A stretch of DNA of 64,000 bases. Source: an uncultured bacterium. Its GTDB lineage: Bacteria; Krumholzibacteriota; Krumholzibacteriia; JACNKJ01. The stretch is taken from contig CAVOFT010000001.1 in NCBI GenBank assembly GCA_963695095.1, positions 3,546,529 to 3,610,528 on the forward strand, given 5' to 3'. A program made the position numbers and the translations under genes. The notes beneath the pieces were generated by a model, which worked only from the letters and a program-made list of their open reading frames with translations, did not search any database and was not told the origin of the DNA. Positions within the stretch are counted from its first letter, which is position 1; every line of letters starts with the position of its first letter. Positions 52,287 to 63,601 of the stretch are shown here, one piece after another.

Positions 52287-53987
52287 CTAGTCCAGCCGCG
52301 CCACCAGCACGGTGAGGTCGTCGTCCGGCGCCAGCGGCGCGCAGAAGTCCCGCGCGGCGGCCATCATGCCGGCCACGATGGCCTCCGGGCTCTCGCCGGC
52401 GAGTCGCCGCAGCAGCGCCTCGATGCGCTCCTCGCCGAACATGTCGTCGCCCTGGCTGGCTCCGGCCTCGCTGAGGCCGTCGCTGTAGATGAGCAGGGTG
52501 TCGCCGGGCGCCAGGCGGGCCACGCCGCTCTCGAAGCCGAGCCGCGGGAAGGCGCCCAGCATGGGCCCGCCGGCCTTGAGGGTCTCCAGCGCACCGTCGG
52601 CGTGCAGCAGCAACGGGTGGTTGTGCCCCGCGTTCACGTAGAGCAGCTCGCCGGTCTCGGGGTCCAGGCAGCCGAGGAAGAGCGTGACGAAGCGCCGCCC
52701 TCGCGTGCTGCGGTGCATGGCCACGTTGATCTGGGTGGCCATGGCGGTCAGCTCCATGCCCGTCTCGCCGAGCGCGCGCAGCATGGCCTGCAATTGCGCC
52801 ATGAGCAGGGCGGCGGCCATGCCCTTGCCGGCCACGTCGCCCAGGGCGATCAGCGCGCGGCCGCCGTGGCAGGGAAAGGCGTCGTAGTAATCGCCGCCGA
52901 CGGAAAGGCACTGGTGGTTCTGCCCCACGGCCTTCAGGCGGCCGAGCAGCAGCGGCTCCTCGGGCAGGAGCTGGCGCTGGATCTGCGCGGCCCGCTCCAG
53001 CTCCTCCTCGAGCCGGCGCTGCTCGGCCAGGGCCCCCGCGGCGGCGCTCTCGCGCAGGCGCACGGCCGCCAGGTGCGCGAGCAGCGTGAGGATCTGCAGA
53101 TCTTCCTCGTTCAGGGGATGCAGCGGCGACAGGCGGTCGGCATAGATCAGGCCCGTCACGCGCTCGTCGTCCCAGAGCGGCGCGCAGAGCACCGAGTGGA
53201 CGCTCTCCAGCACCACGCTCTCCTGGCCCGAGAAGCGCTGATCGCTGAGGGCGTCGCCCACGAGCAGGGCATGCCGCTCGCTCAGGGCCCGACTCAGGAT
53301 GCTGCGGCTGACGCGCGGCGGGCGGGCAGCGGCCCGGGGCGCGCGGTACTCCGCGCGGAGCTGGAGCTGCTCGGGCGATAACGCCGGCGCCTCCTCGCCC
53401 TCGCCGGCGGGCGCGCTCTTGGCCGGCAGCAGCAGGTAGGCGCGGTCCGGCGCGAGGGCCGTCCCCACCAGCTCCACGATGCGCTCGGGCAGGGCCTCGT
53501 GCGGGCAGCTCGTGAGCAGGTCGTGGGCCGCCCGGTCCAGGCGCTGGAAGACGCTCGCCTTGCCGGGCGCCGCGGGCACGGCGGGATTGCTCAAGAAGTT
53601 CTTCGTGTCGAGGCTGCGCAGGGTCTGGCCCAGCTCCTCGCCGACCAGGGTGAGGCCGCCCGGGTCCTCGGCAGGGGCAGCGGCCCCTTGCAGGCAGAGC
53701 TCCACCTCGCCCACGCGCAGGCGATCGCCGGGCGCCAGCGCCGCCTCGCCCTCCAGCGGCAGGCCATTCAAGCTGCTGCCATTGCGGCTGCCCATATCGC
53801 GGGCCCGCCAGGCGCCCGCCTCCCAGCGCAGCTCCAGGTGATGGCGGGAGACCGAGGGATCGCCCAGCGGCAGCTCGTTGTCGAGGGCTCGCCCCAGGCG
53901 GTAGCTCCGCTCGGGGGCGAGGATCAGCTCCTCCTCGGCGCCCCCGGGCGGCGTGACGACGAGCCGGTAGTGCATCGCGGGTGCCAT
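52287..53987 (-). CDS. FHA-GAF-PP2C (SpoIIE/RsbU-type) phosphatase
   Basis: FHA GR...SVSRHH...SRNGS; GAF; VGGDYYD, GDVAGKG, NAGHN, YSDGLSE, DDLT. Confidence 0.9.
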   Translation of the reverse strand: MAPAMHYRLVVTPPGGAEEELILAPERSYRLGRALDNELPLGDPSVSRHHLELRWEAGAWRARDMGSRNGSSLNGLPLEGEAALAPGDRLRVGEVELCLQGAAAPAEDPGGLTLVGEELGQTLRSLDTKNFLSNPAVPAAPGKASVFQRLDRAAHDLLTSCPHEALPERIVELVGTALAPDRAYLLLPAKSAPAGEGEEAPALSPEQLQLRAEYRAPRAAARPPRVSRSILSRALSERHALLVGDALSDQRFSGQESVVLESVHSVLCAPLWDDERVTGLIYADRLSPLHPLNEEDLQILTLLAHLAAVRLRESAAAGALAEQRRLEEELERAAQIQRQLLPEEPLLLGRLKAVGQNHQCLSVGGDYYDAFPCHGGRALIALGDVAGKGMAAALLMAQLQAMLRALGETGMELTAMATQINVAMHRSTRGRRFVTLFLGCLDPETGELLYVNAGHNHPLLLHADGALETLKAGGPMLGAFPRLGFESGVARLAPGDTLLIYSDGLSEAGASQGDDMFGEERIEALLRRLAGESPEAIVAGMMAAARDFCAPLAPDDDLTVLVARLD

Positions 53988-54059
53988 GCCCGCAGCATAG
54001 CGGAAGCGCGGAAGCCATGCTAGACTGCCGCGACCGCGCTGACCCCCAGGGAGGATTCC

Positions 54060-57000
54060 ATGTCCATTCGTGCGATTCTCGGCGGCGCCGCGCTGCTGGC
54101 GCTCGCCCTGCTCGCTTGTGCCCCCACCGGTACCCCCACTGCCGCGGCCCTGGAGCCCTTCGGCGCGCGCCATCCGGCTCTCAGCCCGGATGGCGGCCAG
54201 CTCGCCTTCTCCTGGCGCGGGGACATCTGGGTCGCGCCGGCCACCGGCGGCGCCGGGCGCCGGCTCACCGACCACCTCGCCTACGAGGCGCAGCCGCGCT
54301 GGTCCCCGGATGGCAGCGAGATCGCGTTCATGAGCGACCGCTACGGCAACGCCGACATCTTCGTCGTCGCGGCCGCGGGCGGCGTCCCCGAGCGGCTCAC
54401 GCTCCACAGCGACTACGACGAGCTCTACGACTGGAGCCCCGACGGCAAGACGCTCTACTTCAGCAGCAACCGCGAGAGCCGCGAGTTCATGCTGTACGCG
54501 GTGCCGCGGGCGGGCGGGCGGCCGGTACGCGTGATCCAGGATCAAGCCTGGAGCGCGCGGATCAGCCCCGACGGCCAGTGGATCGCCTACCTGCGCGGCT
54601 ACACCGAGTGGTGGCGGCGCGGCTATCGCGGCCCGGCCAGCCGGGACATCTGGCTGCGCGCGATGAGCGGCGGGCCCAGCGTCCACATCGTGGCCTGGCC
54701 CGGCGACGACGACAACCCGCACTGGAGCGGCGACGGCCGCGCGCTCCTCTTCCAGAGCGAGCGCGAGGACGGGGTCAAGAACCTCTGGCGGCAGGATCTG
54801 AGCTTCAGCGAAGGCAGGATCGACCCGGCCGGCCCGCCCACGCAGATCACCCATCTGGACGAGGACATGGAGTTCCTCTCGGTGAGCCGCGACGGCCGCT
54901 GGGCGGCCTACGAGTCCGCCGGCCGGCTCTGGGTGGTGGCGACGGCGGGCGGCTCGCCGCGCCTGCCGCTCATCGACTGCACCGGCGACGACAAGGCGAA
55001 CGCCGTCACGCGGCGGATGATGAGCGCAGGCGCCACGGAGTTCGCCTTCGCGCCCGGCGAGAAGCAGCTCGCCTTCGTCGTCGAGGGCGAGCTCTACGCG
55101 GGCCTCGTCCGCGAGGGCGAGCTGAAGGACTGCCTGCGCCTGACCGAAACGGCTGCCCGCGAGAAGGACATCGTCTGGCTGGACGAGAAGCAGCTGCTCT
55201 TCGTGAGCGACCGCGAGGACGGCGAGGACATCTACCTGATGCGCAGCACGGACGCCGAGGAGCCGCGGCTGGGCCGCAGCCGCTATCGGGAGACGCTGCG
55301 GCTGACCAGCGACGGCGCCACCGAATACCAGCCCCAGCCCAGCCCCGACGGCAAGACCATCCTCTACTTCAAGGACACGGGCTGGCTCTGGGCGATGGCG
55401 CCCGACGGCAGCGGGCAGCATCGGGTCATCGACGAGCCCGTGATCCTGCACTGCGACTGGTCGCCGGACAGCCGGTGGCTGGCCTACAGCACCACGAACC
55501 ACGGCAGCGCCGAGGACATCTTCGTGGTCGACGCGGCGGGCGCGCGCGCGCCGGTGAACGTCTCCAGCCACCCCAACGACGACTTCCACCCGCTCTGGTC
55601 GGGCGACGGCAAGCGCCTGGCCTGGGCCAGCCGCACCGAGGACGGCTACTACAGCGTCAAGTACCTCTGGCTCACGCGCGCCGAAGCCGAGAAGACGCGC
55701 AGCGAGCGCGAGCGCGAGGAAGAGGCCGAGGAGGACGCCAAGGCCAAGGGTGACGAGGGTGAAAAGGACGAGGAGAAGGCCGAGGAGCCCGCCGTCGTCG
55801 TGAAGATCGACTGGGAGGACCTGCCCGCCCGCACGCGCACGGTGGCCACCCTGCGCGGCTACTACTGGGACTACGACCAGAGCCCGGACGGCAAGCACTA
55901 CGCCCTGCGCAGCGACCTGCTCGAGGGGGAGATGGACCTGTGGACCGTCGACTGGGACGGCGACAAGCTGCTTCGGCTGACCAGCGACGGCGCCGATCCC
56001 GATCGCCTCGCCTGGAGCGAGGATAGCAAGAGGGTCCGCTACCTGAGCGGCGGCCGCATCCAGGAGATCGCGGGCGACCCCGAGGGCGAGAAGAAGACCT
56101 ATGGCTTCGAGGTCGCCCTCACGGTGGACGCGGCCGCGCGGCGCGCGCAGAAGTTCGCCGAGGCCTGGCGCATGCTCGGCGACGGCTTCTACGATGAGTA
56201 CTACCATGGCGCCGACTGGGTGGCCCTGCGTGCGAAGTACGCGCCCCTGGCGGCGGCAGCGGTCACCCACAACGATTTCAAGGACGTGCTCCGCCGCCTC
56301 TTCGGCGAGCTGAACGCCAGCCATCTGGGCAGCTGGGGCGGGCCGCGCGACAACGAGGGCGACGATGCCACGGGCCTGCTCGGCTTCACGCCCGACGACA
56401 GCTACATCGGCCCCGGCCTGCGCGTGGCGCGGGTGCTCAGCCGCGGTCCCCTCGATCGCGAGGAGACGCGCGTGGTCCCGGGCGATGTCATCCTCGCCAT
56501 CGACGGCCGCACGGTCGCCCCGGGCGAGAACTACTACGGGCTGCTCAATCACAAGGCCGACGAGCAGGTGGACCTGCTCGTCGCCGCGGGCGGACCCCAG
56601 GGCAAGACGCGCAGACTCACGGTGGAGCCCCGCGGCGGCGTCCGGGATCTCGCCTATCGCCAGTGGATGGACGAGACCCGCACCCTCGTCGACACGCTCT
56701 CGGACGGGCGGCTGGGCTATCTGCACATGGCCGCCATGGGCGAGGAGGACTGGCCGCGCTTTCTCGAAGACCTCTTTGCCCACGCCCGCGGCAAGGAGGG
56801 CCTGATCCTCGACGTGCGCGACAACAACGGCGGGCGCATCCACGACCAGGTGCTCACCGTGCTCAGTCGGCGGCCCTACGTGTACACGCAGAGCCGGGGC
56901 AAGCGCGAAGGGAACTTCGACGCCATCGAGCGCTGGGACAAGCCCATCGTGCTGCTCACCAACGAGCGCAGCTACAGCGACGGGGAGATCTTCCCCTGGG

Positions 57001-57293
57001 GCTTCCACGCCCTCGGCCTCGGGCGCATCGTGGGCATGCCCACCTTCGGCGCCGTGATCGGCACCAACAACGTGCCCCTGATCGACGGAACCGTCTTCCG
57101 AATCCCGAGCACAGGCTGGTGGCGCCGCAACCCCGACGGCAGCATCGGCTCGAGCCTGGAGAACGACCCGGTGCAGGTGGATGTGCGGGTGCCGGCCGTG
57201 CCCGAGGAAGCGCTGGCCGGCCGGGATGCCCAGGTGGAGGCCGGCGTGGCCGAGTGCCTGCACATGATCGAGACGGGCTGGGGGCGGGACTAG
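54060..57293 (+). CDS. Tricorn-like S41 protease (PD40 propellers, PDZ, S41)
   Basis: Signal peptide; WSPDG repeats; [23 protein letters not shown]. Confidence 0.9.
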
Positions 57294-57652
57294 AGGACCG
57301 GCGCCGGGACCCTGCGGTTCGCCTGGTCCACGTAGACCATCGCGGGCTGGAAGCCCTTGGCCTCTTCGGGCGTCATCTGGGCGTAGGCGATGATGATCAC
57401 CCGGTCGCCCTTGGCGCCCAGGCGGGCGGCCGCGCCGTTGAGGCAGATGACGCCGCTGCCACGGCCGCCCTCGATGACGTAGGTCTCCAGGCGGCTGCCG
57501 TTGTTGATGTTGACCACGTGGACCTTCTCGTAGGTGGCGAGGCCGGCGGCGTCCATGAGATCGCGGTCCACGGTAAGGCTGCCCTCGTACTCGAGGTTGG
57601 CCTCGGTGATCGTGGCCCGGTGGATCTTGCACTTGCAGAGGCTGATCAGCAT
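57290..57652 (-). CDS. panD: Aspartate 1-decarboxylase
   Basis: KIHRAT, YEGS cleavage site, [15 protein letters not shown]. Confidence 0.95.
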
Positions 57653-57701
57653 CTCGGTCCCCGCGCTTTCCGGCCCCCAAGGTCCCGGAAGAGGTGCCGA
57701 T

Positions 57702-57861: not shown

Positions 57862-59265
57862 ATGCGCAGCCTGATCCACAAGATCGCCGAGGAGATCGCC
57901 GCTGCCGGCGGTCGGGCCTACTTCGCCGGCGGCTGCGTGCGCGATGAGCTGCTCGGCCAGGCCTCCCTGGATCTCGACGTGGAAGTGCACGGCCTCCCCC
58001 TAGAGGCTCTCGAAGCGCTGCTGGCCCGGCACGGCCGGGTGCAGGCCGTGGGCCGGGCCTTCGGCGTGCTCAAGTTCCGGTCCCGGCGCGGGGAGGCCGA
58101 CTTCGGCCTGCCGCGGCGCGAGAGCCTGACCGGCCGCGGCCACCGCGGCTTCACCGTGGACCTGGATCCGAGCATCACGCCCCGCGAGGCCTGTGCGCGC
58201 CGCGACTTCACCGTCAACGCCATGCTCAAGGACGTGCTCACGGGCGAGCTGCTGGACTTCTTCGGCGGCCGCGAGGACCTGGCCGTCCGCCGCCTGCGGC
58301 ACACGAGCCCGGCCTTCGGCGAAGACCCCCTGCGCGTCTATCGCCTCATGCAGCTCGGCGCCCGCTTCCGCCTGGAGCCCGCGGCCGAGACCCTCGCCCT
58401 TTGCCGCGAGATGGAGCTGGGCGATCTCGCTCCCGAGCGCATCTTCGCCGAGTTCGAGAAGCTGCTGCTCCTGGCCGAGCAGCCCAGTCGCGGCCTCGAG
58501 ATCGCCCGTGCGGCCGGCATTCTCGCCTTCCACCCCGAGCTGGCGGCCATGATCGACTGCCCCCAGGATCCGGAGTGGCACCCCGAAGGCGACGTCTGGA
58601 CGCACACGCTGATGGTGCTGGACGCCGCCGCCCGCCTGCGCGAGGGCGAGCGGCGCGCGGACCTCGCGCTCATGTTCGGCGCCCTCTGCCACGACCTCGG
58701 CAAGCCGCCCACGACGCACCGCAAGCAGGGCCGCATCGTCAGCCCCGGGCACGCCGAAGCAGGCGAGGAGCCCGCGCGGCGTTTCCTCGGCCGCCTCACC
58801 CAGGACGCCGAACTGACCGGGGCCGTGCTGCGCTACGTGCGCTTCCATCTGCGGCCCGCGGAGTTCTACCGGGTGCGGGAGGAGATCGGCGATGCCGCCA
58901 TCCGCCGCCTGGCCACGGAGATGAACATCGCCGATCTCGTGCGCCTGGCCCGCGCCGATCACCTCGGGCGCACGAGCGCGGACGCCCTGGCCGGCGAGTT
59001 TCCCGCCGGCCAGTGGTTGCTCGACAAGGCCGCCGCGCTCGCCGTCGAAAGCCGCGCGCCGACGCCCATCCTCATGGGCCGCCACCTGCTCGAGCGCGGC
59101 TGGCAAGCGGGTCCCGCGCTCGGCTGGGCCCTCGCGGCCGCCTTCGAGGCGCAGCTCGATGGGGCCTTCGCCGACCTGGAGGGGGCACTCGCCTGGCTCG
59201 AGGGCCAGGGCTGGGGCCCGAACTCGGCGCCGCCCCGGCGCCCGCCCCTGCCGCGAAGCCACTAA
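57862..59265 (+). CDS. cca: CCA tRNA nucleotidyltransferase / poly(A) polymerase family with HD domain
   Basis: GGCVRD..DLD, RRDFTVNAM, EDPLR, ERIFAE, HPEGDVWTH, HDLGK. Confidence 0.85.
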   Translation: MRSLIHKIAEEIAAAGGRAYFAGGCVRDELLGQASLDLDVEVHGLPLEALEALLARHGRVQAVGRAFGVLKFRSRRGEADFGLPRRESLTGRGHRGFTVDLDPSITPREACARRDFTVNAMLKDVLTGELLDFFGGREDLAVRRLRHTSPAFGEDPLRVYRLMQLGARFRLEPAAETLALCREMELGDLAPERIFAEFEKLLLLAEQPSRGLEIARAAGILAFHPELAAMIDCPQDPEWHPEGDVWTHTLMVLDAAARLREGERRADLALMFGALCHDLGKPPTTHRKQGRIVSPGHAEAGEEPARRFLGRLTQDAELTGAVLRYVRFHLRPAEFYRVREEIGDAAIRRLATEMNIADLVRLARADHLGRTSADALAGEFPAGQWLLDKAAALAVESRAPTPILMGRHLLERGWQAGPALGWALAAAFEAQLDGAFADLEGALAWLEGQGWGPNSAPPRRPPLPRSH

Positions 59266-59362
59266 CTTACTTTATAACAATAGATTGCATCGTCTTTGCT
59301 GCTCCCCCCCGCCGGTGGGCCAGCGATCGAAAACGATCGTTCACTATTCGGACGAACCAGGC

Positions 59363-59406
59363 TTGACACAAATTTCACAAGAGCTAGATTGTGATCGATC
59401 GCTTAC
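59363..59406 (+). promoter_or_regulatory. Promoter and candidate operator of the TetR-cytochrome-rhodanese operon
   Basis: TTGACA-N16-TAGATT overlapped by TCACAA-N8-TTGTGA; imperfect palindrome GTGATCGATCGCTTAC at 59391-59406. Confidence 0.6.
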
Positions 59407-59441
59407 CGCATCTATGGGTCTTCAACCCTGGTTAGGTCGAC

Positions 59442-60080
59442 ATGGCCAAGAGCAGCGGAATGCAGACCGGCGGCTCCAGCCGCCGCCAGTGCCTGATCGC
59501 CTCCGCCAGCCGCCTCTTCGCCGAGCACGGCTACGAGGGCACGACCATCCGCCAGATCGCGCGCCAGTGCGGGATCACCGAGGCGGCCATCTACAAGCAC
59601 TTCGATGGCAAGGATCAGCTCTACGAGGAAGTGATCCACAGCAAGTCCCGCCAGCACGAGATCCGCGAACACCTCGCGGCGCAGACGGGGATCGCCGGCA
59701 TCGAGGACGTGCTCTTCCTGGTGGCCCGGCACATCCTGGCCACCGCGCGCGAGGACCCCGATCTCCTGCGCATGCTCCTCTACTCGAGCCTCGAGGGCTT
59801 TCGCGGCTCGACCTTGCTCTACCGCGAGTTCCGCCAGCCCTACATCGCCTACCTGCGCGAGGAGCTGCGCGAGCGCATTGCAAGCGCTGAGATCCGCCCG
59901 ATCAATCCCTTCATCACCAGCCGCTGCTTCGTGGGCATGGTGATGGACTGCGCCCTCAACGTCGAGCTGTGGAACAACCTGGAGAGCACCGCCTACTCGG
60001 CCGACGCGGTGATCCAGAACAACGTCCCCATCTTCGCCCGCGGCTTGCGCCTGGACGCCGCCGCCGAGATCGAAGCCTGA
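59442..60080 (+). CDS. TetR/AcrR family transcriptional regulator
   Basis: LFAEHGYEGTTIRQIARQCGITEAAIYKHF HTH. Confidence 0.92.
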   Translation: MAKSSGMQTGGSSRRQCLIASASRLFAEHGYEGTTIRQIARQCGITEAAIYKHFDGKDQLYEEVIHSKSRQHEIREHLAAQTGIAGIEDVLFLVARHILATAREDPDLLRMLLYSSLEGFRGSTLLYREFRQPYIAYLREELRERIASAEIRPINPFITSRCFVGMVMDCALNVELWNNLESTAYSADAVIQNNVPIFARGLRLDAAAEIEA

Positions 60081-60095
60081 GGAAGGAGAGCTGCC

Positions 60096-61505
60096 ATGCG
60101 CCGACTCCTGCCCCCCCTGCTCGTCCTCCTCGCCGCCGCCTGGCTCACGGGCTGCAGCGACGAGAAGACGCCGCCGGTGGCGGACCAGCCGACTGAACAG
60201 GACCCCTGCCTCGACTGCCATGGCGACAGGGAACTGCTGATGGCCATGCTGCCCGAGGAGGTCGCCCGCATCACCACGCGCGGCGACGGCTGAGGCGGCG
60301 ATGTGCCCGAGCTGGCAGCTTGGGAAGCGATCTACATCGGCGGCACGGATGGCGCGGCCTTCCTCGCAGATCCCAACCACGGCGCCGCGGCGCTGGCCTG
60401 CCTCGACTGCCACGGCGGCGACAGCGCCCAGGGCGACTTCGGGGACTACGCGGCCGAGCACGCGCTCGTGATCGCAACGCCCAGCGCGGCCGGCGCCTGC
60501 GACGCCTGCCACGCCGAGATTGCCGCCACGAACGCGAACAGCCTGCACACGAATCTCTGGGGCGAGAAGGCGGCGGTGGAGCGACGTGGCCAGTGCTCCT
60601 TCGACCAGACGCCCGCCGCCCAGGCCGGTTTCGCGCGCAACTGCGGCGACTGCCACACCACCTGCGGCCAGTGCCACGTGAGCCGGCCGCTCAGCGTGGG
60701 CGGCGGTTTCGTCGATGCGCACAAGTTCCGCCGCACGCCCAACATGACCGAGAACTGCACGGCCTGCCACGGCAGCCGCATCGGCCACGATTACACGGGC
60801 GAGGACCTGAGCGTGCTGCCGGACATCCATTACGCCCGCGGCCATGCCTGCGAACTCTGCCACTGGGCGGGCGAGATGCACGGCGACGGCCTGAGCACGA
60901 ACGCGTCCGGCCACTACGAGCACCGCTACGAGGTGGTCAGCATGCCGCGCTGCGAGAAGTGCCACGTGAAGGAGATCATGGACGAGGGCCACGCGGGCGA
61001 CCCCGAATGGAACGGCGACTACCACGCCGCCCACTGGGAGGGCTGGACGGGCGTGGAGCTGCAGTGCCAGGTCTGCCACAGCCAGCCCTACAAGAATTGC
61101 AGCTTCTGTCACGTCGAGGCGCCGTCGGGCTACACGATCGAGCCCAGCGTGCTGGCGCTCAAGATCGGCAAGAACACCGAGACCGACACGCGTGCCGAGT
61201 ACGACTACACCGTCGTGCGCCACGTCCCCATCCACCCGGATACCTACGAGACCTGGCCGCTGCCGCTGCCGGGCTACGCGGACGAAGCGACCTGGAAGTA
61301 CGCCTCGCCGCACAACATCCGGCGCTGGACGGCCCAGACCACGGTGGAGGCCGGGCAGAGCTGCGGCCGGAGCTGCCATGACAGCCCCGGCCAGGAGCGG
61401 GGCTTCTACCTGCGCGAGAGCGACCTCAAGGACGAGTTCGGCGTCGACCTGATCGACGCGCCGGCCAACGCGGACGTGGTGATTCGCGCGTCGGACTTGC
61501 ACTGA
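60096..61505 (+). CDS. Lipoprotein multiheme cytochrome c, probable selenoprotein (in-frame TGA 60291-60293; 469 aa if read through)
   Basis: AAGGAG RBS, lipobox LTGC; ORFs 60096-60293 and 60303-61505 share one frame; 10 CxxCH plus 1 CxxxCH; hairpin after the TGA. Confidence 0.8.
60291..60339 (+). promoter_or_regulatory. Bacterial SECIS-like element
   Basis: TGA, 12 nt, then stem CCCGAGCT-[GGC]-AGCTTGGG (60306-60324); possible lower stem CGATGTG/TACATCG. Confidence 0.72.
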
Positions 61506-61608
61506 ACACCGTCGCCGGTCCCGGACCGGCGGCCCGATCGTTGTGATGAGGAAGGGGCTCGCCCGACGAGCCTAAAACCGGGCCCTTGCCAGGGCCGAGA
61601 GAAAGCGA

Positions 61609-62643
61609 GTGAAAATGATGAAGCGATTCTGGGCACTCCTGCTCATCCCGATGCTGGCCGTGACCCTCTTCGTCGGCTGCTCCGACGACGATCCGGCCAC
61701 GCCCACGGATAACACGCTTACACCCCTCCAGGAGTTCACGGCCGTCGCCGACGCCGGCCTGGGCTACCTGAACAGCGCGGATGCGCCGGGGGTGAAGGAC
61801 TACACCTGGTTCTCCAGCCAGACCGGCGGCTTCGACGGCTTCACCATCCTGGATGTCCGCACGTCCATCGACTTCGGCAACGGCCACATCGCCGATGCGA
61901 TCAACACGAGCCTTGCCTCGCTGCTGGCCGACATCGACGCCGGCACGATCCCCGTGGACAAACCCTTCATGGTGGTCTGCTACACCGGCCAGTCCGCTGG
62001 CCATGTGGTTGCGGCCCTGCGCATGCTTGGCTACACGGCCTGGAGCTACAAGTTCGGCATGAGCGCCTGGCACACGTCGCTGGACGGGCAGTGGGAAGCC
62101 AACGCGGGCGCGGTCAACGGCGCGGCGATGGCCGATGCCGGCGTGGCCATCGAAACCGCGGTGAACACCCCGGTCACGACCTATGCCTGGCCCGACCTGG
62201 GTCTCACGGTGGACACGGCGGCCGAGGCCGTCGAAGCGCGCGTGGCCGCCACCCTGACCGCTGGCTTCAAGGCCCTGTCTTTCGCCGAGATGAATGCCTA
62301 TCCCGTTGAGGGGCTGGACCACTACTTCATCGTCAACTACTGGACGACGGACCAGTACACGGGAACGGATACCGACACGCCGGGCCACATCCCCGGCGCC
62401 TTCTGCTACGTGCCCAAGGTGGATCTCGACATGGCCGGGCTGCTGGAGTACCTGCCGACGGACATGCCCATCGTCGTCTACTGCTGGACCGGCCAGACCA
62501 GCAGCCAGGTGACCTTCGTTCTGAACTGCCTCGGCTACGAGGCCTACAGCCTGAAGTTCGGCGCCAACAACCTCTTCTGGAGCGCGCTGGGCACCAGTCA
62601 GTGGGTGGACAACGCGCCGGAGCACCCGCTGGTCACCAAGTAG
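61609..62643 (+). CDS. Tandem rhodanese-domain lipoprotein (sulfurtransferase)
   Basis: Lipobox FVGC; ILDVR..GHIADA..VVCYTGQSA and GHIPGA..VYCWTGQTS. Confidence 0.88.
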   Translation: MKMMKRFWALLLIPMLAVTLFVGCSDDDPATPTDNTLTPLQEFTAVADAGLGYLNSADAPGVKDYTWFSSQTGGFDGFTILDVRTSIDFGNGHIADAINTSLASLLADIDAGTIPVDKPFMVVCYTGQSAGHVVAALRMLGYTAWSYKFGMSAWHTSLDGQWEANAGAVNGAAMADAGVAIETAVNTPVTTYAWPDLGLTVDTAAEAVEARVAATLTAGFKALSFAEMNAYPVEGLDHYFIVNYWTTDQYTGTDTDTPGHIPGAFCYVPKVDLDMAGLLEYLPTDMPIVVYCWTGQTSSQVTFVLNCLGYEAYSLKFGANNLFWSALGTSQWVDNAPEHPLVTK

Positions 62644-62664
62644 CCTTCCCTGCTCTGCATTTCC

Positions 62665-62696
62665 GACGGGGGCCGCTGGCGGCCCCCGTTTTCATT
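62665..62696 (+). terminator. Rho-independent terminator ending the operon
   Basis: ACGGGGGCCGC-tg-GCGGCCCCCGT followed by TTTCATT. Confidence 0.85.
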
Positions 62697-62701
62697 GCGG
62701 G

Positions 62702-63601
62702 CTAGTCCGCGGCGAGCACGGGATTCGCGAGCGTGCCGATGCCCTCGATGCTGCAGCTCACCACATCGCCGGGCGCCAGGAAGACCGGCGGGTCCCGGTG
62801 CTCGCCCACGCCGCCCGGCGTGCCCGTGCTGATGATGTCGCCGGGCTCCAGCGTCATCGTGCGCGAGAGGTAGGCGATGAGAAAGGGGATGCGGAAGATC
62901 ATGCGCCCCGTGTCGCTGGACTGCCTCAGCTCGCCGTTCACCCGGCACTCGATGGCCAGCGCGTGCGGATCGGGAACGGCCTCCGGGGTGACGATCCAGG
63001 GCCCGCAGGGGCCGAAGCTGTCGAAGCCCTTGGCGCGCAGCCACTGCTTCTCGGCCCGCTGCGTGCGCCGGCCAGTGACGTCGTTGAGAATGGTGTAGCC
63101 CGCCACGCAGGCCATCGCTTCGGCCTCGCTCACGCGGCGGGCGCGGCGGCCGATCACCACGGCGAGTTCCGCTTCGTAGTCGACGCGGTCCTCGATCTCG
63201 GGATCGGGAAGCAGGATCGGCGCGCCATGGCCGACGAGCGCGCTGGCGACCTTCGGAAAGAGCAGCGGCGCCTCCGGGGCCGCCACGCCCTGCTCGTCGG
63301 CGTGCGCCTGGTAGTTGCGGCCCAGGCAGATCACCTTGCCCGGATCTGGGATGGGCGGCGCCCAGCCCGCCGCGGCCGGATCGACGAGCGCGACTGCCGG
63401 CCAAGCGCCCTGCGCCAGGGCGGCTCTGACTTCCTCGAGCCGGCCGGCGGCCAGGATTTGCCGCCAGCTCGAAAAAATTCTCGGATCCAGGCGCGAAAGA
63501 TCCAGCGCTAGCTTATCTTCCAGCAGCAGGGCCGGCCGCTCCTCGCCGCGGCCGCCCAGACTCAGAAGCCGCAGGGCGAGGCCGATCTCATGCTTCCCCA
63601 T
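62702..63601 (-). CDS. Fumarylacetoacetate hydrolase family protein
   Basis: ICLGRNY..H, DYEAELAVVIG, NDVTGR, KGFDSF, TGTPGGVG. Confidence 0.92.
   Translation of the reverse strand: MGKHEIGLALRLLSLGGRGEERPALLLEDKLALDLSRLDPRIFSSWRQILAAGRLEEVRAALAQGAWPAVALVDPAAAGWAPPIPDPGKVICLGRNYQAHADEQGVAAPEAPLLFPKVASALVGHGAPILLPDPEIEDRVDYEAELAVVIGRRARRVSEAEAMACVAGYTILNDVTGRRTQRAEKQWLRAKGFDSFGPCGPWIVTPEAVPDPHALAIECRVNGELRQSSDTGRMIFRIPFLIAYLSRTMTLEPGDIISTGTPGGVGEHRDPPVFLAPGDVVSCSIEGIGTLANPVLAAD

Follow-up and report, generated by a model that had tools for sequence, protein, structure and literature searches.

We describe here an operon at positions 59363–62698 (plus strand) of a 64,000-nucleotide stretch of DNA, hereafter the window, from the genome of a Krumholzibacteriota bacterium of the JACNKJ01 lineage. 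It comprises three genes on the same strand, encoding a TetR-family regulator (59442–60080), a c-type cytochrome (60096–61505) and a two-domain rhodanese (61609–62643). The cytochrome gene is interrupted by an in-frame UGA codon, UGA66, which is almost certainly decoded as selenocysteine (Sec), making the cytochrome a selenoprotein, and comparison of loci strongly supports its belonging to a widespread, unannotated selenoprotein family. That the cytochrome and the double rhodanese form a conserved module is, judging from the gene neighbourhoods, hardly open to doubt. The best explanation we can offer for the sequence of the region is a single TetR-controlled operon for an extracytoplasmic chalcogen-reducing module. 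The more specific proposal, that the cytochrome is an extracytoplasmic reductase of polysulfide, sulfur or another chalcogen fed by the rhodanese as carrier, is one that we hold about as readily as we doubt it.

Under translation table 11 the cytochrome gene falls into two pieces, a 65-residue open reading frame (ORF) at 60096–60293, which holds a signal peptide, a lipobox and one CxxCH motif, and a leaderless 400-residue ORF in the same frame at 60303–61505. The signal peptide is present on the first piece only, and none is found on the second; attachment of c-type haem requires export. Read through the TGA at 60291–60293 (plus strand), the two pieces give a lipoprotein of 469 residues, an undecahaem cytochrome c with lipobox Cys20 (LTGC followed by SDEK), ten CxxCH motifs and one CxxxCH motif (CGRSCH). 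Residue 66, the Sec position, lies in the context RGDG-U-GGDVPE, with a G-U-GG motif. We searched 61 genomes of the same class, the source genome included, and 21 had a match to the cytochrome gene, 20 of them with exactly one TGA inside the matched frame. A wider set was assembled from the best 80 of 422 related stretches in contigs representing one genome per species, together with the same-class hits, and amounted to 88 distinct loci besides the window. In 85 of these 88 the TGA is kept within the motif [DE]-G-U-G-G-x-[VI]-x-x-[LV]-E-x-W. The exceptions carry Trp (TGG) in one locus (L026, the same as L067) and an Arg codon in two (L103 and L107). In L026:117–1628 the Trp is followed by Val-Gly, and the contig stops before the position of the rhodanese; in L103:4955–6196 and L107:5974–7341, Arg-Gly-Gly replaces Sec-Gly-Gly. 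Distant full-length homologues (P0128, P0130, P0162, P0209 and P0183) align Cys-Gly-Gly at the column of Sec66.

The source genome is equipped for Sec insertion, with tRNA-Sec (71.9 bits), SelB (336.8 bits), SelA (429.8 bits) and SelD (342.4 bits) all scoring above curated cut-offs. Its selD gene (C1:69142–70107, outside the window) itself carries one in-frame TGA, so that the organism makes one other selenoprotein or more. At the same time TGA is the stop codon of tetR, of the cytochrome gene and of 35 out of 89 cytochrome orthologues, and is therefore not generally a sense codon. The split is repeated in the databases: 118 of the 120 best database homologues listed span no more than 85% of the query and thus begin after the TGA, and the 65-residue head exists as an entry of its own (P0231). 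The initial annotation had proposed a Sec-containing cytochrome from the window alone, and this is borne out by the conservation of the motif, the Cys homologues, the Sec machinery and a covarying hairpin.

This hairpin, which resembles a selenocysteine insertion sequence (SECIS), is located at 60306–60324 (plus strand) and begins 12 nt 3′ of the UGA in the centroid structure, with an 8-bp stem and a GGC triloop. Across 74 distinct sequences, 87.7% of the stem cells pair, compared with 24–53% when the 3′ arm is slid by 1–3 columns. Columns 20 and 30 pair as A-U in 31 sequences and as C-G in another 27, and column 30 is the synonymous third position of an Ala codon. In 18 sequences an alternative register one codon further 5′ is used, with 95.1% of the cells paired and three pairs changed on both sides. 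The case for a SECIS element rests on this comparison between loci.

The gene that follows the cytochrome (61609–62643, plus strand) encodes a tandem-rhodanese lipoprotein of 344 residues, matched by PF00581 in two stretches (E = 1.5e-18). Its lipobox, FVGC followed by SDDD, puts the lipid anchor at Cys24, and its two active-site loops read CYTGQS (Cys124) and CWTGQT (Cys292); all three cysteines are invariant in 29 aligned orthologues. The initial annotation was right that both structural proteins are lipoproteins with like residues after the anchor Cys, and that both rhodanese domains retain an active-site Cys. It had also named the gene neighbourhood beforehand as the place where its reading could fail. 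Among the 82 loci with at least 700 nt of downstream sequence, 80 have a double rhodanese directly downstream of the cytochrome on the same strand. The two that lack it are exactly the Sec-to-Arg variants L103 and L107, a joint loss of Sec and double rhodanese that is suggestive (n = 2). L107 retains only a short single-domain rhodanese match. The solved relatives of the rhodanese are generic sulfurtransferases only, the best being 1yt8_A (E = 8e-18).

The number of rhodanese domains varies between loci. Where at least 2.2 kb of downstream sequence is available, 33 loci have two double-rhodanese units, 22 have one, two have three and two have none. Many relatives encode the rhodanese as one ORF, with four domains (613 residues; L089:7485–9323) or apparently six (L041:7523–10255). 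The two genes can also be joined: P0124 is a continuous cytochrome–rhodanese protein without an internal leader, apparently a true fusion. Many bare cytochrome homologues carry the Joint Genome Institute label ‘thiosulfate/3-mercaptopyruvate sulfurtransferase’, which fits cytochrome–rhodanese fusions such as P0124. We rejected P0122 as a fusion of the cytochrome with four rhodanese domains, since its internal lipoprotein signal peptide indicates that it is probably a gene call running through a stop, and regarded P0125 as doubtful, with a low-complexity stretch at its Sec region. The accepted fusions are P0124 and P0123 only; the partner of the cytochrome in P0123 is a membrane domain, described further on.

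Relatives of the cytochrome are encoded in all 422 stretches mentioned above, and a database search gave 776 clusters at 90% identity with E ≤ 0.001 among 8000 scored candidates. The related loci are labelled Krumholzibacteriia, Eisenbacteria, Latescibacterota, KSB1 and Calditrichia. Pfam recognises only generic multihaem signatures in the cytochrome (PF14522 and PF14537), and NCBIfam release 20 has no family for it at E ≤ 0.01. The cytochrome-type selenoprotein families given in a 2026 review are ExtKL (NF040886), GSU2204 (NF041027) and the octahaem tetrathionate-reductase family TIGR04315 (PMC13188914), and in the absence of any NCBIfam match at that threshold the cytochrome falls outside all three. 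Genome-wide, the best NF040886 score was 35.9 bits (cut-off 250), at an unrelated locus. We found no description of the family in the full-text literature searched, which yielded only MccSep (discussed below) and reviews, a search that left the homologue lists in data S1/S2 of PMC13510729 uncompared.

In alignments of 20 and of 84 members, ten conserved His residues outside the haem motifs were counted for eleven haem motifs, which leaves one haem whose sixth ligand may be of another kind or absent. Comparison of the Sec/Cys-type members with the others returned differing positions at 66 and 67 only, and no partner residue for Sec66 emerged. An AlphaFold2 model built on 84 sequences has a mean predicted local distance difference test (pLDDT) score of 87.6 and a predicted template modelling score of 0.84, with moderate pLDDT values (63–71) in the Sec loop. 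Searched with VIA-align against 48,161 chains, the model matches best the octahaem tetrathionate reductase (OTR) of Shewanella oneidensis (1sp3_A), at a borderline Z of 8.1 with a root mean square deviation of 4.2 Å over 252 residues. The match spans model residues 92–469, and the segment comprising haem 1 and Sec (33–91) lies outside it; the next matches are hydroxylamine oxidoreductases, MtrA and OcwA (Z 3.5–4.2). Searches of PDB sequences with the protein and with its profile gave local haem-motif matches only and no full-length relative. We know of no rhodanese partner of OTR. The closest structural neighbour of the model is a multihaem enzyme described as acting on sulfur and nitrogen oxyanions (PMC13510729), which differs from the window cytochrome in having eight haems and in lacking Sec, the lipid anchor and the N-terminal haem-plus-Sec extension, and shows no sequence match to it. 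The modelled fold and the histidine count would speak for a redox enzyme over a plain wire, as would the example of MccSep, described below, a Sec-containing multihaem cytochrome that reduces polysulfide and selenite.

Both structural proteins may face the outside of the cell. Lipoproteins were called from the lipobox (LTGC, FVGC) together with the signal peptide. After the lipobox Cys, positions +2 to +6 hold two or more acidic residues in 62 of 80 cytochromes and in 22 of 27 rhodaneses. All the lineages named above for the related loci, from Krumholzibacteriia to Calditrichia, are kin of Bacteroidota. In Bacteroidota, the export signal of surface lipoproteins consists of polar followed by acidic residues (SDDDD, SDDFE or K-(D/E)2), according to Lauber et al. 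(2016; PMC5080379). As the acidic starts resemble this signal, the cytochrome and the rhodanese may sit on the cell surface, and surface exposure of both lipoproteins would be a reasonable expectation.

To see how electrons might reach such a cytochrome we turn to the genes around it. Clustering of the ORFs of 80 loci revealed two more recurrent genes upstream of tetR. The first encodes a protein of ∼305 residues with ten CxxCH motifs, a decahaem cytochrome of the DmsE family (202.7 bits with TIGR03508, above the cut-off of 192.2) that also resembles the GSU2203 family (197.6 bits, under the cut-off of 325). The second encodes a protein of 600–630 residues ending in Phe, with weak matches to NF041027, the GSU2204 family. 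The AlphaFold2 model of the latter is an all-beta barrel (pLDDT 83.3) whose best match is MtrB (6r2q_B; E = 3.6e-17) with a template modelling (TM) score of 0.63, compared with TM ∼0.4 for TonB-dependent receptors. Where at least 4 kb of upstream sequence is available (52 loci), 28 loci have both the decahaem and the barrel, always along with TetR, as for example at L043:2244–3149 (decahaem) and L043:3166–5058 (barrel). No lipoprotein cytochrome other than the Sec cytochrome is encoded in the loci with this pair, where it takes the place that MtrC has in the MtrCAB complex of Shewanella (6r2q). None of the tests we ran makes it a homologue of MtrC, and neither conduit gene was found in the source genome.

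The window itself presents a simpler arrangement. As the initial annotation had it, no porin or quinol oxidase gene was found beside the operon among the genes of the window, and the electron donor is not encoded alongside; a porin–cytochrome conduit of the MtrAB or ExtHIJKL type was found neither in the window nor elsewhere in the source genome. Its description of the module as ‘minimal’ suits this genome, in which no conduit was found, but not the 28 of 52 relatives in which the module stands behind an MtrA/MtrB-like conduit. Cytochromes of the NapC/NirT type are encoded elsewhere in the source genome. Large multihaem frames are found at C1:1494100–1497150 and C1:3480200–3486750 (open frames of 1181, 544, 929 and 672 residues), one of the two clusters adjoining a NapC/NirT-type match at 3483034–3483306; both clusters are candidate electron donors. 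A different solution is seen in P0123, a 959-residue metagenomic protein that starts just after the Sec position, with additional haem domains followed by a membrane domain of the cytochrome b561 type (PF01292); in some organisms the coupling to quinol may thus be direct. With a b-type fusion in P0123 besides the MtrAB-like neighbours in other loci, electron wiring differs within the family.

The sole characterised Sec-containing multihaem cytochrome is MccSep/ExtKL (GSU2937-2936) of Geobacter sulfurreducens. It is a proven polysulfide and selenite reductase that prefers polysulfide and is inactive with thiosulfate and tetrathionate, a soluble periplasmic protein that has five haems, a haem-ligating Cys239 and, within an Ig-like domain at the C-terminus, Sec325 (PDGUPTP) (Mihara et al., Sci Adv 2026, PMC13510729). 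Like the window cytochrome, it is an exported multihaem cytochrome c with an in-frame UGA for Sec, annotated as two ORFs, with a SECIS-like hairpin after the UGA, and its gene cluster includes a rhodanese-like lipoprotein (ExtH) and an outer-membrane channel. The two proteins have no detectable sequence relationship, however, and differ in the number of haems (five against eleven motifs), in the position of Sec (C-terminal against directly after haem 1, in G-U-GG), in the haem-ligating Cys, for which the window family has no conserved counterpart, and in location, MccSep being soluble and the window cytochrome a lipoprotein. The parallel that the initial annotation drew with the Geobacter ext cluster is therefore one of analogy and not of homology, given the lack of an NF040886 match, the eleven haems instead of five and a Sec near the N-terminus. 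A second system of related logic is Sud of Wolinella succinogenes, a periplasmic rhodanese-like protein that passes polysulfide sulfur to the terminal reductase Psr. Psr is a molybdoenzyme and Sud a soluble single-domain dimer, and neither a cytochrome nor Sec is involved.

We postulate that the rhodanese binds sulfane sulfur as a persulfide on its Cys, the source being polysulfide, elemental sulfur, a thiosulfate-derived persulfide or a selenium analogue of these, and hands the persulfide to the cytochrome. There the selenolate of Sec66, in the Gly-rich loop after haem 1, would attack the S–S or S–Se bond, and the haem chain would reduce the resulting Se–S intermediate with release of sulfide or selenide. 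Electrons would come from a donor encoded elsewhere, of the NapC/NirT type here and through an MtrA/MtrB-like conduit or a fused cytochrome b in relatives; a cytochrome located on the cell surface would replace MtrC. This persulfide–Sec mechanism follows the logic of MccSep and of Sud and Psr. A bolder version, which is possible but which we hold with more doubt than confidence, is that these proteins constitute an undescribed class of cell-surface selenoenzyme, in which an undecahaem Sec lipoprotein replaces MtrC on an MtrAB-type conduit (and is wired otherwise here) and, together with the double rhodanese, carries out the extracellular respiration of insoluble elemental sulfur, polysulfide or selenium. 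Sec66 would be the distal ligand of the His-lacking haem, or a nucleophile beside it, and the TetR regulator would sense sulfane sulfur by a pair of cysteines.

Several results weigh against these proposals. First, the hairpin of the window is no more stable than shuffled sequences in single-sequence folding (z −0.37 and 0.40), and an Rfam scan of 59200–62800 at E ≤ 10 returned no SECIS family and only five chance-level hits. Second, the score of 8.1 to OTR lies at a level where a common arrangement is possible, Foldseek found nothing in the PDB for the cytochrome model at E ≤ 0.001, and the sequence profile of the cytochrome does not reach OTR, so that the match is to be taken as a fold resemblance and not as membership. 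Third, no conserved Cys exists outside the haem motifs in the alignments of 20 and 84 members, and the haem–Cys mechanism of MccSep is therefore not directly transferable. Fourth, the export-signal rule is established for Bacteroidota only, and since P0123 is fused to an inner-membrane cytochrome b, a surface location is not general and may not apply here. Lastly, the source genome, which is 93.5% complete, yielded no MtrB-like barrel when searched with one protein and a 26-sequence profile, and no DmsE-family decahaem (TIGR03508) above cut-off.

Of the other explanations, the one that survives best is that the pair acts on thiosulfate or tetrathionate, the rhodanese splitting thiosulfate into sulfite and a persulfide and an OTR-like cytochrome reducing the persulfide or tetrathionate, or the two forming a TsdA-like pair. 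OTR as top fold match and a rhodanese profile closest to thiosulfate sulfurtransferases both agree with this, as does the entry of TIGR04315 as a sometimes Sec-containing family in the 2026 review (PMC13188914). We nevertheless consider it unlikely: the cytochrome has no TIGR04315 match at E ≤ 0.01 and eleven haem motifs, not eight, the fold score is borderline, and MccSep, though of a different family, is reported inactive on both compounds (PMC13510729).

A module specific for selenium, which would reduce selenite or elemental selenium or mobilise selenium with the rhodanese as selenium carrier, seems to us distinctly unlikely. The locus contains no selenium-specific item, and the family is common in lineages first found in sulfidic settings. 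What can be said for it is that the organism uses Sec, that rhodaneses are described as carriers of selenium besides sulfur (PMC9369223), and that MccSep also reduces selenite, although with a preference for polysulfide (PMC13510729). We give little credence to the reverse direction, an oxidation of sulfide, polysulfide or thiosulfate by the pair at the envelope that would feed electrons inward to the respiratory chain. Multihaem cytochromes and conduits of the Mtr/Pio type can run either way, and cytochrome b561-type fusions like P0123 occur in quinone-reducing enzymes. However, no Sox or Dsr neighbours occur in the window or in the surveyed loci, and the one characterised Sec multihaem cytochrome is a reductase (PMC13510729).

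Equally improbable is a generic extracellular electron-transfer cytochrome, an MtrC analogue serving metals or electrodes, with Sec and rhodanese for protection or maturation. The MtrA/MtrB-like pair upstream in 28 of 52 relatives, with the Sec cytochrome as the only lipoprotein cytochrome there, would suit such a role, and database homologues carry a precomputed match to the MtrC/MtrF domain II/IV family PF22113. The linkage to a rhodanese in 80 of 82 loci, its loss together with Sec in both Arg variants and its fusion to the cytochrome would be unexpected for a metal reductase, and no conduit was found in the source genome. That the cytochrome is no selenoprotein at all, being two separate genes, a pseudogene or a UGA read through by a near-cognate tRNA, is scarcely tenable: the two ORFs under table 11, their separate database annotation (P0231 for the 65-residue piece) and the Trp (L026) and Arg (L103, L107) variants are outweighed by the frame and flanking motif kept in 85 of 88 loci, the Cys homologues, the covarying hairpin, the full Sec machinery and a downstream ORF without leader.

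Multihaem selenoenzymes have been experimentally proven only since 2026, with MccSep, and the present family would be the second, unrelated to the first and apparently widespread. Because gene callers split the gene at UGA, annotations and metabolic reconstructions for several uncultured phyla miss it. The constancy with which it is paired with a double rhodanese, often together with an MtrAB-like conduit, provides a testable hypothesis for sulfur or selenium respiration in these organisms, and the family opens another context for work on Sec beside haem. If the reading as a surface selenoenzyme were true, extracellular chalcogen respiration would be common in lineages labelled Krumholzibacteria, Eisenbacteria, Latescibacteria, KSB1 and Calditrichia.

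The regulator encoded at 59442–60080 (plus strand) is a protein of 212 residues with a TetR domain at residues 18–64 (PF00440, E = 1.2e-18), for which no NCBIfam equivalog scored over its cut-off. Among 81 loci whose upstream sequence is long enough, 55 have a TetR gene 5′ of the cytochrome, and the order TetR, cytochrome, rhodanese is seen in 17 of 20 same-class loci. In the half that binds the ligand, Cys162 and Cys170 make up a Cys-x7-Cys pair (RCFxGMxxxCA), and at least 95% of 54 distinct orthologous ORFs retain each of the two; that this pair is a thiol-based sensor is speculation on our part. The candidate TetR site is an operator-like imperfect palindrome, GTGATCGATCGCTTAC, at 59391–59406 (plus strand), abutting the −10 element of the promoter, and in close relatives a palindromic word directly follows the conserved promoter elements. 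Of 57 distinct regions upstream of tetR, some of which had served to derive the pattern GTnAnCGnTnnnTnAC, 31 contain it, compared with a mean of 0.045 in 200 shuffles. The regulator would bind the palindrome where transcription begins, with its Cys pair as a possible sensor of the substrate. A further operator-like word, GAAAACGATCGTTCAC, at 59329–59344, 5′ of the −35 element, matches eight of nine specified bases and could be a second TetR site.

The only sigma-70-like promoter found in the region is TTGACA-16-TAGATT at 59363–59390 (plus strand), which matches at 10 of 12 positions; shuffles led us to expect 0.2 sites, against the one found. In close relatives the −35 element, the spacer word TTCACAAG and the −10 element are conserved 5′ of tetR. 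An intrinsic terminator at 62665–62698 (plus strand) consists of an 11-bp G+C stem (62665–62690) followed by the U-tract tail UUUUCAUU; its hairpin has a folding energy of −29.5 kcal/mol (z −4.37), equalled in none of 200 shuffles. A consensus terminator scan missed this site and listed only a weak one on the minus strand at 61639–61620. The initial annotation had placed three co-directional genes between one promoter and one strong terminator, and all of these elements are found where it put them. Between tetR and the cytochrome gene lie 15 nt, which carry the ribosome-binding word GGAAGGAG; the 103 nt between the cytochrome and rhodanese genes form hairpins without a U-tract, and their structure is non-significant (z −1.73). 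From these short gaps and the conserved gene order we infer that the three genes form one transcript.

On the 5′ side the operon is preceded by a gene of the CCA-adding/poly(A) polymerase type (57862–59265; PF01743 and PF01966), and on the 3′ side a gene of the fumarylacetoacetate-hydrolase family (62702–63601, minus strand) converges with it. Further upstream in the window, two very long ORFs overlap on opposite strands, at 52287–57680 (minus) and 54060–57293 (plus). The plus-strand ORF has 1077 residues and a G+C content of 0.94 at third codon positions, and the C-terminal end of the minus-strand ORF resembles an FHA-GAF-phosphatase protein by eye.

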